A stretch of 64,000 nt of DNA from Perna viridis (lineage: Eukaryota): positions 46,893,597 through 46,957,596 of the forward strand of contig CM074512.1 of NCBI GenBank assembly GCA_037379345.1. The letters run 5' to 3'. A program made the position numbers and the translations under genes. This document shows positions 8,958 through 46,490 of the stretch, piece after piece (the stretch's first letter is position 1; each line of letters starts with the position of its first letter). Below the pieces are notes generated by a model, which saw only the letters and a program-made list of their open reading frames with translations, was not told the DNA's origin and made no database searches.

Positions 8958-10102
8958 CTGTTTACACCTTAAGTCTGAAAGTGGTTCGATTAAATCAGGT
9001 TAACTATACTTTAAAACCGAGAGGACTTAATACATAAGTATCATTAACCCGTTCAACATATCTATTTGCAACATTTTGAAGATAAAGGTACAATGAATAA
9101 GTCGTTTAAATACCAAGTGCAGTGGAAACACAACAGAAATTTTGGAATAATTCAAAAATACCCGGTAGTCTACTCCTGTAATTATATAGTTAAAATGCGC
9201 TATATATAGACAGCCTTAAAAAATCAATTGTCATCATCAATGAATTGTAACCCAAGAAATTTTGTATACTCAAATGAAAACGTATTTTAGACTAAAAAGA
9301 CCAACTTTCTTCGAATTCAAACCTCAGAAATGGGATGACTGTGACTTCCGTAAGCGGAGTAAACCACCATGAAAATCGTACAATGTATAGGGGTCGTCGA
9401 CGTTTGATTTATTTGATATTCTTTATATAAGTTTGACTTATCGTATTTAATCATTAGAACTGCCACACCAAAATATGAACGTATTTATATAGCAAAAAGA
9501 GCATTGTTAGTCAAATTTACCATAAGATAAACTGTAATCACATACATTAAACATATTTAAATTCCTACCTGTTTGCTTTGCCAGTCAGTAGTTATCGCCC
9601 TTTGTCTTTACTTTACACATTAAGAAGAAGAAAATATTTCTTCTTATTTCTGCTTACCATTGATCTTATAATATATTTTCTTATTCATCTGTTTCATCTA
9701 TCCAAAGTGCAAAATGTATAAATGATATCATTATTTGATAGTGAAACTATTTCCTTTGAGGTTATTCAATTAGCTTAGAGGTATTATTTTACAATGAAAG
9801 TTTGTGTTTGATTTGCCCTGAAAGTCAAACATGTAATTGAAATTAAGTTGTTATCATAACAATATCAGATATTGATTTGCATAGTTATTCAAACTATTAA
9901 CAAACATGTGATCCAAGAGAACAACACATGGCATTGCATAAACCTTGATATCATATAAAGTAAAATTGTACTTTTCACTTATTCAAAACAAAGAAAAATA
10001 TCTGAATCAAGATTTAAAACATACGCTACGCAAGAAAGTAAAGCTACAATTAAAAAACGAATATTTTAAACAAATAACATAATGAATAAATATATATATA
10101 TA

Positions 10103-10325
10103 GTCACAAAAACCAGACATGGAAAACAGACATACACATCAAAGTACATAAAAAAAACTAAAATAATACATACAAAGTAATAAAACTAAATGAGCACCTC
10201 GGACTCCACTAAAAAGTGGGAGCATGGACTAGGTGCACCGGTAGGGTAAACGTCATCTGCTTTTCTAGAAACATCCGCCAAGATGCTCCTAAAAAGTCAT
10301 GTCCGTGGTTGACGAAAGAGGAAAG
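10103..10325 (-). repeat. Naiad 3' tail copy
   Basis: Reverse complement of 2630-2850. Confidence 0.8.
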
Positions 10326-10969
10326 AATAAAATATGTTTATCACCAACACGTTTTCTATATACACGGGTTAAAGGTTAAAGCCAAAATGATATCAAGCTT
10401 TTTCATCATGGACACGTGATTTATTGATTGTTTACATTTCTCTGAAATTAACTGTTAAACTGTTAAATAAACCAATTGTGTTTTGTATATATTTCTACTG
10501 CTGTTAAAAGAATGTAAAATGAAAGCAAAAGAAAGCTCGCTATATTTAGTCCAGATGTTTTACATTTATTTCCATTCCACTAAAACTAAAGACGCGAAAA
10601 ATAAAGACCGACAAAAGTTTGATATCCCTACCATTATAGTAAATCGAAAAAACTCACAAAATATAAATTTCTTTGTTCTTTGTTTAAAATTAACTATGAT
10701 AATACAATGATTTTAACTAATTTTTTGTACATATTTGTATTCAAGGGAAGCAAACTGTACCAGTATTTCAAAAAGCGGTTCTCTCGCCAGGTGCTTGCGG
10801 ACTTTTCCGCTTTACATATATCACTAGTTAATCTACGATACGTGATCATCAAGCCATTTATTTGTATAAAAAGTTTGTTTATACATATAAAACATTATAT
10901 CATGTTATTTGCTTTTTGATTTGATCTGTGTTAAGACCATCTATTCCAGTACAAAAATTCTGACTATTT

Positions 10970-12150
10970 GAAAATTATCAAACCATGTTCCATCACTTTC
11001 AATGATATATTTGACTACAACGATGACGAACCCCATTGTACTATATCAAAATGAGGTATTAAAAATTGCAAACATGCAACATTCTTATAACCGACTCTTA
11101 CTTCTCTAGTACCCTTACAAACAAACCCTTCCATACAAGAAGTCACGATGACTTAAGTTGCAAATCAACGAACTTAATACATGGATTAGAATGCAACTTA
11201 TGCGGTTTAATATAGGTCGGTGAAACACAAGAACGATTAAACAAAAGAATGTGCTTTCGGGAATAAATACCACCAAATTCCCGATAGTTTATCAACATTT
11301 TAATCAACAAGATCATTCAATCCTCTCTATAAAAGTTCGTATTTTAGAAAAAAATTACCATCCTACGAACAGCCCCGTTCTAAGTAAAAACTATCGTGGG
11401 GAAAGACAGGAGTACTGGATACGCAGACTAGGTACTGCAATACCTTATGGATGCAATCACAACATCAAAAGTATAGAAAACCTTTCAAGCCAATATAACA
11501 AAAGCTTAAATGTGATGAATTTATTTGACAAAGCTCCAAGACGGGAAAGGAGTCATGGCCATCGCCACTATACGTCACCTAAGTTACATGATGTCTCCAT
11601 AGATGGTCTCCTTCCTTTCATACTAAAACCTCTTGGACTTCATCACATTATAACAAAACTCTATTCTACACCTTTCACTCTACTACACTCCCTTTACAAT
11701 ACACGTCTTGACACTCCTGTTTCTGACCCCACCTCAACATTGTACAGACTTGTTGCCATCATTTTGGATATTGGTTTCCACAGACTCTTTAAACCAGTTT
11801 GTGTGAAAAGTCTAGATGAAGAAAAACGATCATTTCTTCCACTACCGTTTGTCAACAAAGTTATAGATGCAATTAATTTGGCTAAAATCCTCCATCACAA
11901 AAACGTTACCAACAAAATTCCCCCATATTTCAAAGACAAATACATACCAATTATTTCATATTCATCTAGTCCATGCTCCCAGTTTTTAGTGGAGTCCGAG
12001 TTGCTCATTTGCTTTTGTTACTTTGTATGTATGATGTTTTGTTATTCAATGTTCTTTGTTGTGTGAGTCTGTTTTCCATGTCTGGTCTTTGTCACTGGAT
12101 TACATTCTTTTGATTACCGCTCTAACCTTGGTTCCCTTGATTACTCTTTC
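10970..12150 (+). mobile_element. Internally deleted Naiad-type element: N-terminal GIY-YIG endonuclease and linker joined directly to the 3' tail
   Basis: K*GIKNCK(T)C...LSCKSTNLIHGLECNLCGLI*VGETQERLNKRM...VYQHFNQQDH...EYWIRRLGTAIPYGCN...PIISYS, then an abrupt switch at ~11965 to the tail seen at 2725-2909. Confidence 0.85.
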
Positions 12151-12744
12151 AAACAATTTACGAGTTATCTTTTAGAAAAGTGAAGATCTCTATTTTGTGT
12201 TGACATTCTATATTTATGCATTATAAATATATCGTACGATAATGTTTTCATCTCCTAGACAGTATGATTTAAGGAGTTTTCTTTGTCTCATCTATAATTT
12301 CTAACATTTCAAGTTTGTGAGCAAAATATTATGTACTTTCACCACTTCCATTTTATCTGAAGTCGACTTCGTCCATCTCAACTATATAAACAATTTGTTT
12401 TTAATTACTTTTCCTATTCATTTCCTATATTACATCGGACATCACATGGGCAACTCTCCTTAAAGTGGTCAGAAGGAATGATAATTACATCGCCAGACGA
12501 GGGAAAATCCATGATAAAAAAAAAGCCGGGAACACCATCAACTAATTGTTACAGAGACTTACACTTAAAATATTTTAAAACATTTCCCAGAAAAACAAAC
12601 AATGTAAGTCATTATCTATTTCTTCAAACTTATTTTATTTTTTTTTATACCATACTTTTTTGTATGTAAGTCATGCGGTGAGCAGTCACTTTTATAAAAA
12701 GACCGACCGGCAACATTCCTCGGATCAATACTAGGATATTATCT

Positions 12745-16067: not shown

Positions 16068-19000
16068 CTAAAAAGACAAAAAATAAAAATGCTGTATTCA
16101 AAGACACATATAGAGTTACTTGTAATTGTTTGGTTATATTGTGAACTCTGTTTAACACCATAGAAATATTTCATGAAATTATTACAGTGGTTTTAAAGGC
16201 GAAATAATGAAGACTTGAGAGTTCAGTAGTTACAGAAAGGCCAACACGGGTGAAAAAAAAGTAATAAATAGTATACTAGTATATACTGCACTTGACTTTT
16301 TGTCCCCAAATCGACCACAGATGCAGTTCGATGCAACGGTCGACTTGAAAGGCAGCAACGTTTTTTTTTGTTTTGGTTTGTTTTTGTTTTGTTGGTTTTT
16401 TTAAATTTTATCTCGTTGTAGATGTTTCGTAAACTACCAATTTGAATTTCGTGCTTCAACAATGAGATGGAAGTCAAAATGTTGAAGAAAACAATGATAT
16501 ATCAAAATAAATCAGTAAATAAAAAAGACTTAGTTTTAAGTCCAGCTCGTCTTTATTTACCATAAGAAACATCAAATATTTCAACTCTATTTCAGTTGGG
16601 CATATCAAAAAAGTTTTTTTGATAAATAAATCATAAAACCGATCATGACAAAGCCCAAATTATAATACCAATATTTTAGGTTTTCGGATTACAACACATT
16701 TTAATTCATACCTATAGTACTAAAAGCTTGATTTTGTATTATAAAAGAACCTATGTAAGAAAGAGTAACCAAGGGAACCAAGATTCTGGCAGAAATCAAA
16801 AGAATGTAATCCAGGGACAAAGACCAGACATGGAAAACAGACACACACAATAAAGAACATAAAATAACCAAAATAATATATACAAACTAACAAAAGTAAA
16901 TGAACAACTCGAATTCGACTAAAAACTAGCGGCATGGACCAGATGCACCGTTAGAAGAATAAGCGTAAAAAGTATAAAGAAGTGAAATAAGACAACGGCA
17001 TAATACATATAATTCATGTAGTCCGTCGGTTATAACACAATAATGTAACATTTCTGCGGTCCTCACCATCACCTGATTGGGAATGCCTTCTTCGAATATG
17101 ATTTTTGTGTATGTTGACCGTCTTTATTCTTTTATTTTTGTCATGTCTTGGCCATTTTACATGGATTTTGACGTATTTGATTGTCTCATTAGAGACACAC
17201 ACATCGGTATTTTTGTGCCGACATCTACTTCCACATGTCATAGATGTTTTCCCTCTTACACAGACATGACATTCAACGGACTGCACGCTGAGCGTCTTGC
17301 ACGAAGCATGAACTGATCATCATGTGTAGTTTATTGTTACTTTGTGTTTCATGACCTATTCTACAAGATTTTTGTAGTTTTGTTTTGTATTCCAGGCTTT
17401 GTTTTCCTCTTTGAACCCTAAAAACGTTATGTATTTGGATATCTACAATGCGGCTCAATTTAATAATTGAACTTACATTATTATCTAATGTCAAACTTAC
17501 CTCCACTATTTAAATAATTAACCATTCTACACTTATCGGGCATTTCGTCACTTCCGTCATGGCATTGTAACTTTTGATCGCAATGATATTCTTCAGGTAT
17601 GCACTGGCGACCACTTGTGCACATGAATGTCGTTTCGTTGCATAATGACAGATCAAAGTTTCCTGGTAGAGCTACAAAATAGTTTACAGTTGATTAAAAT
17701 GCTTTTGATTATATTTCAACATTTCTTTTCCATGCAATGCGTTTTATCTACACAAGATTATAACAGACAGGAAAGAATTTAACTGCAGCAATACGTGGGA
17801 TATATGATTTATGATTTTTTTTTATTACAGGATAAACATTAATTTCAACTTATGTCATCAAAAATAACGACAAAAATTAGCCCGTGGTACACTAACGATA
17901 AGTTCCGAGTTTGAGGAACAAATTTAACCTGTGAGGTCGGTAAAAATGGATAAACTTATTTATGGCATCAGAAATAAGACCGTCATTTGTCTATGACTTC
18001 GGTCATATGTTTATCACCATTTAACAAAGATTTTCCTCTAAGGACGTCATACATGAATTGTTCCTACTTACAAAGTTATACGCTCTTTGCTATCCGGTAA
18101 AGGTAAACAAAATGTATTTTTAAGGAATCATAATTCAAATCTAATTAGAATATCATATGCTAATAAGATTGGAATTACAATTCCTAAAAAAATACATAAT
18201 GCCTATTTCGTGCACTATGATAAGTTGTTCACCTTTTACGACCTCTTTACAACAGTGTAAATTTCATGTACAAATCGTAAACAACATGGCTACCATCGAG
18301 TTTAGAGGTTTAAAGCGGTATTATATGCTTTATACCATTCATTTTCGGCATTCTTTATTCAAAGCAAAAATTTTGAAAGAATATAGTTACCATTGTTTTT
18401 TCCAGAATTTATGGATGTGTAAAGTCGGACCATTCACGCACAAACCTTCGGACTTTTATTTGTTTTGTGAGTGAATGGTCCGATTTTACACATCAATAAA
18501 TTATGGAAAACAGTGTTTAAACTTATAATAAATGGATTCGACCATTTACCAATAATTTTTCTGTATTTTACAAGTATATTTGTACTATATGCACATACCT
18601 GGACAAACAATATTATTGCATACTTTTTCTTCCCTTCCTAGTCCTTCACATGGTTTGCCATTTTCAGATGGCTCAGGAGCTATACACAGTCTTGTTCTAG
18701 CAGTACTTCCAGAACCACACATTTTACTGCAGTCACTCCATGCCGTCCACATGGTCCAGCCACCGTGAACTGATAAAAAAACAGTAGGTCATTATAACAG
18801 AAGTGTCTTGAAGAAGACAAATATATAAAGATTGTAAAATTATTATCATATTTATATGACGAACGAGACGTCTTTTTTTTTAACTATCTAATTTCAATTC
18901 ATTTGTAGTCTGAGGTTTTGAAACGTTGCATTAATATACATATTTTTTGTAATGAGCTTTAATGTCATTGATAAACGTTTGCACTGAATTATAGATATCC

Positions 19001-26233: not shown

Positions 26234-26630
26234 CTATCATTAGAACTGTGTTACGTTAGGTCTCCATAGAAATTATTTGATTATCATACGTGTTATTTCT
26301 TGCCACTGTTTCGGATATTTTAGGAAGAAAATTCAATATTGCAATATATTTTTTTATTTAGATTGCAATATACTTTTTGGGTATATATGTATTAATATTG
26401 TGGCAACAATATTGTCTGAAGTAAAGCACTTCTTTCAATCACAATAATATACCTGTAGATACGAATGTGTTAATAAGTGGTCTTGTTACGAGTCTTACCT
26501 TGAGAAGACATACCCTGAATCATACAGGCATCCGCCATGTGTATATTAATGCCATGTTAACCATATCAACACTGAAAATAGAAAATAAGATTGTTGTCAT
26601 CAATTATATCAAATTTATATACACGTGTTT

Positions 26631-26915
26631 AAAGAGTAATCAAGGAAACCAAGGTTATAGTGGTAATCAAAAGAATGTAATCCAGGGACAAAGACCAGAC
26701 ACGGAAAACAGACATACACAACAAAGAACATAAAGTAACTAAAATCATACATACAAAGTAACAAAAGTAAATGAGCAACTTGGACTCCACTAAAAACTGG
26801 GAGCATGGACCAGGTGCACCGGTAGGGTAAGCGTCCTCTGCTTTTCTAGAAAAACCCGCCGAGTTGCTCATAAAAGTCAAGTCCGGGGTAGACAAACGAG
26901 GAAAGGAAAACTATG
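26631..26915 (-). repeat. Naiad 3' tail copy, nearly complete
   Basis: High identity to 2622-2909; the track ORFs here nearly duplicate those at 2668-2957. Confidence 0.88.
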
Positions 26916-27639
26916 ACTAAAGACAGTTTAGAAACAGATGTTATTTACTCAATACAAGTATATAGTAAACTGACAGGTGTTACACATGATTTAATGGTAG
27001 TACTTAAATGGTTTATTGTACAGGAAATATTGATGTGAAGTGGTATTGGCTACTATCAATTAATCTCGCAATATATTGTATTTGTATCAACACACAAAAT
27101 TACTTTATTAACATGCGAATTTATACATGGTATTTTCATGAATTTTGCTATTTAAAAACGTTTATATTTTTCACCATCTGAAATGCATGAGTTCGCTTAT
27201 CACACACGAACTTATAAACGAATGGTTATGAACAAAGGAAATATTGTAATAATGATATCCCTTCCTCGATAGTCATTAACCAAGATGACTTAACATAAGG
27301 GTCTTTCAGAAGTATTTGCACGACCATAATGCATTATGGAAATACTAAACCATGTGTTCCAACGTAATATGAAATTGGTAATAAGCAGAAGCTCTAGTTC
27401 GAATACATAAGTAAACTACTGAACTCATTGTTTTGGCATTCAGTGAAAGCTTTTGAATTAAACTACATCGTTTACCCTATATAGCATATCATTAAAAAGA
27501 TATACCAAATTAATTAAAGCGAAGCATTTTATAGTGTATTCTATGTATTGTTTTTTCCTTAATTTTAAATCCGGAAAAGGGTGGAAATTGTTTCCGTATT
27601 TAACACAGACGTCAGCAAAACACCAACACGTCTGCCATC

Positions 27640-28814: not shown

Positions 28815-28949
28815 GAGAAATAGTACTGGACAATTTTTCATAGTGCATTTCAGCTGAATTAGACCTATCAATATTTTTAAAAGGTAAAATTATCAAACAC
28901 TTCAATTGACATTTCTGGAGGTCATGAGTTATAAGTTCTTGGATAAAGC

Positions 28950-29441
28950 GCCCCGTGCAGGTCCAGGTGTCAAAAGAATAGGCCTGCAGCAGCGCTAAGC
29001 TTGTCGTAAAAGGCGACTAAATGGTGCTCAGTAACCTAGCCGGGGGCTAGGATGTGTGCCCGAGGTGGTGGAATGGGGTACCCCTGGCATGTTACATGCT
29101 GGGGATGTCAGGCTATAATACGGAAAACCTGACCGCAAACCGTAGTGGTGCACCGTGTTGGGAAAGATGCCACGTTCCTCGCAAGTTAAAGACCCCTGGT
29201 GTGGTATTCGATAGGAGTAGGAACCGTTGCGCTCCGCCACAGGAGGCTAAATTGCCCGACCTTACCCATCCCTTTTTCTAGTGGCAATCAAAATTTGTCG
29301 ACCCTACTGTCCTTGTGTCCCATCCTTTTTTTTATTTCATCATCATTTCATGTTCATTTTATCATCCATTTCATATTCATCGTCTGAATATAGCTGAAAT
29401 ATTGCTGCTCGGACGTTAAACCCCAACAATCAATTAATCAA
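28950..29441 (+). mobile_element. Full-length non-autonomous structured retroposon (SINE-like, Deu/Nin-like core, I/Nimb-like (AATC)n tail), copy 1
   Basis: 13-bp TSD TCTTGGATAAAGC (28937-28949 and 29442-29454); ends GGACGTTAAACCCCAACAATCAATTAATCAA; homologous to the copies at 55302 and 60858. Confidence 0.88.
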
Positions 29442-29645
29442 TCTTGGATAAAGCAAGACAATTTCTGTCTTTTTTTCATCGTGTGCCACACCTTATACAC
29501 ATATTGCCCGATTCTTAGACAAAGAAGTGTATAATGACATTCATATTTAAGAATTTTAAAATTAAGTATTAGTAACACCTGCATAATACTAATAAATACT
29601 TTGTTACAAGCACGCTAAAAAGTCATTACTAGTCTTTTACATGTC

Positions 29646-29695: not shown

Positions 29696-30899
29696 ATGAG
29701 TTTCGGATCATTCCTTCTATTGAATTTAATTGCCGCTGTGTTCAGTGCTGGGAAAGAAGGGCAATATGTGAAAGACCTTTGTAAATGTAATATGCAGATA
29801 GGTACGTTTCATATTTTCTTTGCTTTACAATTTACCAAGTTATCAACTGACCTATATTTGTTCATGTAAATGTCTTTGCATTGGTGCAAAAGATGAATAT
29901 TTGAATTTCTCATGTGACATATCTGTGACCATTCTTCGTGTGAAACCAAGTTTAGAAATAAGCTTTAACTTATTCGCAGTATCAAGTAGTTCTTTTGACT
30001 TTTAAATATCAAATAATTTTATATTTACTACGTTGCTGATTTTAGAAAGGACCAGTGCCGTGATAGCGACAGTACGACATACTTTAGATCATTTGGAAAA
30101 GTCGCTATCTTCATTCAAAACATGTGGTATGTAATATCATACAATTATCTACATAAACTACCTAAAATTATAACATGTATTATGGTAAAATAAATAAAAT
30201 CACAACAGTGTATCTTGTCTTGTGTATATATATATATTTACAAACCGGAAATTTCATAATTTCACAACAATGAAATAAGCGCTGTTTTATTATATTCACG
30301 AGGAGTAATTAAACAACGTTTTAAGAGAGAGGCGATCAAACAATCCAATCCTGGTTCATATCCGAATCTCAAATTTACTAAAATAGTTCTTTGAAAGTCC
30401 CAACAAATTTACAATATACTATATACTAAGACATTTTCTTTACTTGTGTATATGTTAATATTTTTTAGTGTATTATATGTTGTAGAACGATGTTTGACGA
30501 ATGCACACAAGGAAAGAAGATATATTTTTCAGCTTCACTATCAAATACTCGATCTCTGAGCGGTAGTCAAACAGTCATTTTCGATTATGTGAACGAAAAT
30601 AGCGGGAAATGCTATAATCCAAATACCGGTAAATTTACAGCAACAAAACAGGGGGTGTACTATTTCACATGTTCATTTATATCAAGTAGTGGTTCAAAAA
30701 CATTACATCTTAGACTGGTCAAGAACAAAAGCACTATTGCTAGAGCAACAGGGTATAATGGTTCACACAGCACAGGAGTTTTGAGCGCCGTTGCGTATTT
30801 AAGGTTGGTGACACAATTGAAGTTCAACATTTTCCTGGAGCCAGTACACAGGCGATTTATGGATCCCATTGGTCTCGGTTTGTTGGATATATGCTGTAA
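29696..30899 (+). pseudogene. Secreted C1q-domain-containing (C1qDC) gene with two frameshifts (pseudogene or assembly error)
   Basis: Exons 29696-29801 (signal peptide MSFGSFLLLNLIAAVFSA), 30046-30126 (short helical stalk) and 30486-30899 (gC1q: IYFSASL...VIFDYVNENSGKCYNPNTGKFTATKQGVYYF...GDTIEV...SRFVGYML*). Needs +1 nt near 30510 and near 30802. TATA upstream, AATAAA at 30927. Confidence 0.85.
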
Positions 30900-31181
30900 T
30901 ATATTTATGCCAGTCTTAAAATATACAATAAATTTTGACTTTATGATTGTTTGGTTGTTTTTTTACGGTTCATTTTCTCATACTTCATGAAATTATATCA
31001 CGCATCTTTTAAGGTATATTTCACAATAAAAAAAGTACTATAGGCTTAAAATTCATATAATGCATGTAACCTGGCCTGCTGCAACGTATAGTAATTCCTT
31101 GTATGTGTTTTACTTGAATATATTTATGGCCTGGCTTACTCTGAACATATTTACCTCGAATTTTTCTGCTATTCATTTTGA

Positions 31182-46290: not shown

Positions 46291-46490
46291 AAAGAGTAAT
46301 CAAGAGAACCAACGTTCTAGCGGAAATCAAAAGAAAGCAATCCAGGGACAAAAACCAAACATGGAAAAACAGACATACACAACAAAGAGCTTTAAGTAAC
46401 TAAAATAATACATAAAAAGTTACAAAAGCTAATGAGCAACTCGGTCTCCACTGGAAGCATGAACCAGGTGCATCGGTAGGGTAAGCATTC
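46291..46490 (-). repeat. Naiad 3' tail copy
   Basis: AAGAGTAATCAAG...ATGAGCAACTCGG...CATCGGTAGGGTAAGC. Confidence 0.8.

Follow-up and report, generated by a model that had tools for sequence, protein, structure and literature searches.

A conserved predicted RNA fold at the 5' end of an LP-SINE family of Perna viridis, also present on a LINE and on RNA-virus-like contigs

LP-SINEs were described from molluscs in 2016 (Matetovici et al., PMC4758252). They have a head of ~70 nt that corresponds to the 5' ends of Nimb-17_LMi, I-3_DR and RTE-9_CPB. For this head a promoter function was proposed, the Pr77 promoter/ribozyme was named as a precedent, and experiments were called for. The available parts of that paper treat the head as a putative promoter and carry no mention of RNA structure or of occurrence in viruses.

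Three other known systems come close. HDV-like ribozymes at LINE 5' ends and Pr77 of L1Tc/ingi are described in the accessible parts of the sources as a short module spread across unrelated LINE clades, which defines the 5' end without upstream sequence (PMC5786205, PMC6765202, PMC4758252). Exonuclease-resistant RNAs (xrRNAs) are found in 3' UTRs and in tandem arrangement (PMC8374639, PMC12397905). In those of plant viruses, Xrn1 is reported to stop where the first stem begins (PMC12397905), and class 3 xrRNAs use a T-loop (PMC12397905, PMC8374639). Finally, bivalves carry the tRNA-headed SINEs Meta, V and Deu, with tails attributed to Nimb or CR1-Zenon partners (PMC4824008, PMC11481361).

We analysed a 64,000-nt stretch of the Perna viridis genome, here called the window (Table 1). 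Judged by its sequence, the element at 28950 is an LP-SINE, a new family of a known type. Its head is homologous to the 5' ends of Nimb/RTE LINEs and also begins a full-length LINE (L323). It lies at the extreme 5' end without a tRNA head or Pol III boxes, and the copies have variable target-site duplications (TSDs) and short tandem repeats at the 3' end. By eye, the head matches the Chlamys “Nimb-17 homology” block along its length, and also Pan_3, in the supplement of PMC4758252. In common with the LP-SINEs described there, the ~70-nt head is abutted by the TSDs, the tail is a short tandem repeat, homology is limited to the head, and the body is partly Nin-like, as in Sgl_LP. The family and its body differ from those published. 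The original prediction is partly supported. The element type is not undescribed: LP-SINEs were already known, and promoter and ribozyme roles had been raised for their heads in PMC4758252. The description of a non-autonomous retroposon with a LINE 5' UTR-derived head, a structured leader and a LINE-type tail is supported, but the bipartite layout originally proposed has to accommodate a Nin-like block in the body.

The element resembles the tRNA-headed Meta, V and Deu SINEs (PMC4824008, PMC11481361) in its tail and terminal repeats. Unlike these, as far as the accessible parts of the sources describe them, it has no tRNA head and no B box, and no Meta domain was seen. Membership in the MetaSINEs was rejected, the motif being absent from the Meta alignments searched.

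Table 1. Coordinates of the LP-SINE copies, the predicted parts of the head, and other repeats (window positions unless a locus is named).
Feature	Position	Strand	Remarks
LP-SINE copy 1	28950..29441	+	full length, 492 nt; ends in (CAAT)n
Left TSD, 13 nt	28937..28949	+	
Right TSD, 13 nt	29442..29454	+	
Head domain 1, predicted H-type pseudoknot	28952..28987	+	cross-family covariation
Pseudoknot stem S1	28952-28955 with 28964-28967	+	one pair broken at 28965 in copy 1
Pseudoknot 1-nt U loop	28956	+	
Pseudoknot stem S2	28957-28963 with 28981-28987	+	
Conserved AGAAUA linker	28975-28980	+	
Head domain 2, stem P3	28991..29028	+	28991-28996 with 29023-29028; encloses internal loop and hairpin
Near-invariant hairpin	29003-29017	+	inside P3; 4 bp, 7-nt loop, then UAAA
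Family-specific body	29029..29180	+	could form several hairpins; neither homology nor covariation across families
Block resembling Nin central domain	29181..29261	+	by-eye, unscored comparison with Lottia_Nin (part of the supplement of PMC4758252)
LINE-type tail ending in (CAAT)n	29386..29441	+	by-eye likeness to bivalve V and Meta-Deu SINE tails
LP-SINE copy 2	55302..55728	+	3'-truncated
LP-SINE copy 3	60858..61362	-	older; 11-nt TSD at 61363-61373 and 60847-60857
Second dispersed repeat family	2628-2914, 10102-10330, 11960-12155, 16754-17004, 26625-26917, 46291-46452, 62048-62219	both	
Resident LINE, young Nimb/I-type	L317, L318, L319, e.g. G000:C8:23537700-23543770		TSDs; ORF1 (491 aa) and ORF2 (1247 aa) intact

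The three copies in the window have a common start (28950, 55302 and 61362), and two of them lie directly against a TSD (13 and 11 nt), as had been noticed from the sequence; the 13-nt pair of copy 1 is perfect. Relative to a typical family copy, copy 1 has a 24-nt internal deletion near 29050. The family is abundant: an 18-nt hairpin motif of the element has 8,241 exact matches in the 723-Mb genome and a 20-mer from its body has 9,171, with no match for the reversed control of either. Identity among the best full-length copies is 88-94%. The 3' end of copy 2 runs into a 33-nt tandem array (55717-56194), and the flank preceding this copy resembles the unit of the same array. Elsewhere, several copies are found in or beside copies of a resident LINE (L315, L320).

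The position of the 5' edge was followed in two sets of copies. To avoid selecting intact heads, 30 loci were anchored on the body, of which 5 were flagged as duplicates, leaving 25 distinct. The start falls within the first three element bases in 19 of the 25, one of these probably being a tandem duplicate; 4 are truncated at scattered sites and 2 have no assignable start. The head-anchored set comprises 85 distinct loci, and in 73 of them the 5' anchor is intact. Here the edge is ragged over 1-2 nt, with G1 in 52/73, C2 in 58/73 and C3 in 70/73. It lies 0-2 nt 5' of the first stem, and the fraying spans these bases. The precise 5' end originally predicted is supported. The first base differs by family, being G in 18/20 copies of one and A in 18/25 of another. 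A cap-derived G at +1 was discarded as a general explanation because A is the first base elsewhere. Of 98 copies whose 5' anchor is intact, 61 have a TSD of 8-15 nt, and 33 of these TSDs abut GCC directly.

In agreement with the original prediction, no tRNA was reported by ARAGORN in 7/7 loci, and the box scan of two copies gave no B box in either and one A-like string with one mismatch. By these two results, the element lacks the tRNA head with A and B boxes of a tRNA-derived SINE. The covariance models of Rfam 15, curated ribozymes included, gave 0 matches at the gathering threshold in the window, and an Rfam search of 11 loci gave one match (E 4.1), located outside the motif.

By comparison between families, the head is a conserved RNA fold comprising about the first 80 nt. 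Homologues with other bodies came from pattern scans and include 120 metagenome loci, 9 of 25 prokaryote-assembly matches and 7 of 9 viral matches; the motif that the original prediction had placed in other invertebrate retroelement leaders does occur in such heads. Most homologues have a stem of 3-5 bp at the 5' edge, then one U and a crossing 7-bp stem. A linker of variable length (1 to >60 nt) with AGAAUA at its end follows, and after it a stem that encloses the conserved hairpin. Many single repeat copies are degenerate or unparsed in this comparison. What had earlier been read as the first hairpin is part of the pseudoknot, and the 5'-terminal stem had been missed. The apical loop of the head, 8-9 nt long, is entirely taken by S2.

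We measured the support for this fold in 27 representatives, which were hand-picked as the best preserved, are phylogenetically not independent, and have registers set by sequence anchors (a MAFFT alignment was used for the hairpin only). Pairing in S2 is 0.88, against 0.59 with swapped partners, and 0 of 5,000 permutations are as high; in the 16 unbulged representatives the values are 0.90 and 0.60. P3 has a mean of 4.27 pairs against 3.42 (1 of 3,000 permutations, n=27). In 14 representatives selected for an unbulged S2, 96% of pseudoknot cells are paired, compared to 39-49% with slid partners, and 8 of the 10 pairs have two-sided changes. Support for S1 is weaker than for S2, with two-sided changes in 1 of 3 counted pairs. 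A per-record shuffle test is significant in 15/27 representatives, including 6/6 viral records; the 12 that fail include the window copy with its S1 lesion, the LINE copy, and bulged or long-linker heads. The lesion of copy 1 is a G-to-A change at 28965, where 631 of 694 RNA reads have G. The search pattern itself fixed the hairpin core, so that its invariance is built in; relaxed scans of the viral contigs found one loop variant of it and no stem variant. Its 7-nt loop has U at position 1 and A at position 5, and may resemble a T-loop. The covariation of the pseudoknot shows selection on RNA shape.

The picture is different downstream. Of the serial stems that the original prediction drew over the 5' 200 nt, those re-read are present in the sequence, but their significance was overstated, with folding z-scores of only -1.38 for the first 101 nt and -0.36 for the second, and conserved structure ends near nt 80. 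Differences between copies had been taken to preserve pairing through G-U. Among 119 family copies, a change disrupts a pair far more often than it restores one, and the downstream stems have at most one compensation per pair in a count that leaves out the GGGGT and GCATG stems, so that argument fails. Stems beyond nt 80 are family-specific, decay neutrally and have no comparative support. In one copy (L065), nt ~80-125 of the SINE, a region part-deleted in copy 1 near 29050, scores 15 on a permissive HDV descriptor with a flank-derived P1. This score, reached by 2/500 shuffles of another sequence, may be due to chance.

The LP head is also carried by a LINE. L323 is a full-length APE-RT-RNase H LINE that begins with it, and was found inside a bacterial assembly. 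Its relative in Perna viridis is the resident LINE, 51% identical in ORF2, with intact ORFs and a head that has 137 matches in the genome. It has the next 5' UTR block in common with L323 but begins with a longer segment. The first 65 nt of the resident LINE fit an HDV descriptor, in our own permissive version, with 16/17 pairs, a value reached by 0/500 shuffles; Rfam gave no support for this HDV-like head. The resident LINE starts on the same base in 23/25 copies. On LP heads the descriptor scores 0 in 13/14 and 11, which is chance level, in one, in line with the earlier view that the leader is not HDV-like. Two related LINEs thus differ by an LP head versus an HDV-like head, which suggests that both modules likely do the same job at the 5' end. 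LP heads are similar to the HDV-like ribozymes and Pr77 in being a short module common to unrelated LINE clades, in defining a 5' end without upstream sequence, and in this exchangeability. Unlike these ribozymes, as described in the accessible parts of the sources, the head has no nested double pseudoknot (P1-P2-P3-L3-P1.1-J4/2). Within this genome the LP head was found on the SINE only in the loci examined, and none of them is a LINE with this head; 144 further matches of similar score lie outside those loci. The tails of the resident LINE and of the SINE match only over the last ~25 nt.

In viral sequences, the head fold is found in sense on six distinct RNA-virus-like contigs (L250, L251/L255, L253, L254, L256 and L372), with an RdRp in 4/6 and capsid domains in 4/6. 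They are viral by gene content, a measure that does not distinguish RNA origin from endogenised or chimeric sequence. In all six, the head follows the last stop codon at a distance of 6-199 nt, and 81-184 nt separate it from the contig end. With so variable a distance to the stop and no ORF behind it, the head was rejected as a readthrough or frameshift signal. On two contigs (L250 and L372) there is a second head copy in tandem, partial or degenerate. Two heads in direct tandem were also seen in a host repeat (L148:1370-1510). Among variant viral patterns, the looser one gave 23 matches, none of them new, the free-loop one gave 28, of which 7 were known, 1 was new and 20 showed no such fold by eye, and the free-stem one returned the 7 known matches only. 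Phages had no match to the head pattern.

A solitary head without SINE body is located on a 212-kb DNA-virus contig (L252:9984-10046), ~220 nt upstream of a 1056-codon open frame. Its coordinates differ from those of the planthopper SINE reported in IIV-6, which was rejected as its identity. As for the 25 matches in prokaryote assemblies, 16 lack the fold by eye and 9 are like eukaryote repeats inside the assemblies. Such eukaryote-type repeats, including a whole LINE, were seen in L282, L284, L287-L290 and L297-L299, and are probably contamination.

What appears to be new is the fold itself, along with its presence in viral sequences and its interchange with an HDV-like head, none of which was found in Rfam or in the open literature searched; subscription papers, supplements or Repbase/Dfam annotations could hold earlier descriptions. 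On balance, we think it rather probable that the LP head represents an undescribed class of autonomous RNA that defines a 5' end. It would be either an exonuclease-resistant RNA, the first in the service of cellular retrotransposons, or a new class of self-cleaving ribozyme, as a module that moves among Nimb/RTE LINEs, SINEs, the 3' UTRs of RNA viruses and a large DNA virus, and that is swappable with HDV-like ribozymes.

Compensatory stems kept in RNA-virus 3' UTRs are not explained by a DNA promoter, so the head would work at least partly as RNA. This bears directly on the proposal, contained in the name LP, that it is mainly an internal RNA polymerase II promoter, with a secondary RNA fold exploited separately by viruses. 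Such a promoter fits the 5'-terminal position on LINEs and SINEs, the purine start of most families, a core without covariation (invariant by construction of the search) and the thousands of full-length copies; given the compensatory changes, we regard it as unlikely. Binding of a protein, such as a translation factor (as a cap-independent enhancer), a polymerase or LINE proteins, with the precise 5' end as a by-product, is clearly the least probable of the readings considered. Translation control fits the sites in LINE 5' UTRs, in virus 3' UTRs and ~220 nt before a DNA-virus ORF, and the available parts of the literature report a translation-promoting effect of HDV-like heads, but many non-coding SINE families, for which translation is irrelevant, keep the whole fold at their exact 5' end. 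A precise 5' end that requires no upstream sequence leaves two RNA functions, cleavage or exonuclease stalling. For cleavage, the head would be a ribozyme of an undescribed class, in which domain 2 docks on the pseudoknot and a cut just 5' of the first stem frees the element from a read-through transcript. PMC4758252 names Pr77 as a precedent, and ribozymes are known in the UTRs of linear RNA viruses according to the accessible part of PMC13725137. The LP head occupies the site that an HDV-like fold takes in a related LINE, does not depend on conserved sequence upstream and has a near-invariant 17-nt core like those of catalytic RNAs. Against this, cutting where a viral 3' UTR begins would presumably sever the 3' end of the genome, the edge frays more than in the HDV-headed LINE, families differ in their first base, Rfam and the HDV descriptor give the results reported above, and RNA reads spanning the junction are common, with strand not distinguished. 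We therefore hold a self-cleaving head to be possible but doubtful.

Exonuclease stalling is the reading that we tentatively prefer, at a confidence that stays short of even: the predicted fold of the LP head may be an exonuclease-resistant RNA that sets the 5' end of the element. The position on viral contigs and the tandem copies are as in xrRNAs, Xrn1 halts at the base of a first stem, and cleavage would cut off the viral 3' end, which together favour stalling over a ribozyme; the 3' UTR position also appears to fit exonuclease resistance better than a DNA promoter. A host read-through transcript or intron containing an element copy would be degraded from its 5' side until the predicted head fold stalls the 5'-to-3' exonuclease, leaving a precise and protected element RNA. 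We infer that a Nimb/I-type LINE enzyme likely copies this RNA, priming at the tail repeats, and an internal promoter may in addition supply capped transcripts alongside this trimming route. Several observations speak against stalling. In its secondary structure the head fits neither class 3 nor the three-way-junction classes of flaviviruses, and an H-type pseudoknot of this simple kind does not have to pass its 5' end through a ring. That it exchanges with an HDV-like fold is equally an argument for cleavage, and purine starts fit transcription initiation.

The closest xrRNAs are those of class 3 from Tombusviridae and Solemoviridae (PMC12397905, PMC8374639). As described in the available parts of these sources, they are similar to the head in a 5'-terminal stem whose loop pairs downstream, a UTR site behind the stop codon (6/6 contigs for the head), a T-loop-like element and a 5' edge lying where the first stem begins. 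Unlike them, the head has no P1-internal loop-P2 hairpin with an L2B T-loop in its apical loop, and its conserved hairpin is a separate downstream domain. We found no report of class 3 xrRNAs in retroelements in the literature searched. Unlike the flavivirus xrRNAs of classes 1 and 2, the covarying structure of the head has no three-way junction with two pseudoknots. We would class it as xrRNA-like in its presumed working, and not as a member of xrRNA classes 1-3 or of the HDV-like ribozymes.

Evidence from RNA comes from one run, of which 19% was read, and from a fragmented library pooled over thousands of copies. The family is transcribed on both strands, largely with run-on into the flanks. 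In this fragmented library there is no place where many molecules start, and 271 reads cross into the flank at 28950.

For the head function left open in 2016, the fold provides a structure model and natural compensatory variants. This function is testable on RNAs of ~80 nt, with the HDV-like LINE head of the same genome as a built-in positive control. Exonuclease resistance, if true, would mean that xrRNAs are not confined to viruses but occur in cellular mobile elements too, adding a structural class and a promoter-free route to full-length SINE RNA, while cleavage would mean a new ribozyme class. Either outcome would document the exchange of RNA modules between retroelements and RNA viruses.

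Lastly, in terms of its surroundings, copy 1 may lie in the 5' region of a C1q-domain gene. Within 29696-30990 (+ strand) there is a probable signal-peptide exon, ~250 nt downstream of the element, and a C1q-domain exon (30469-30990) on the same strand. The window also contains at least 7 copies of a second dispersed repeat family, found on both strands.
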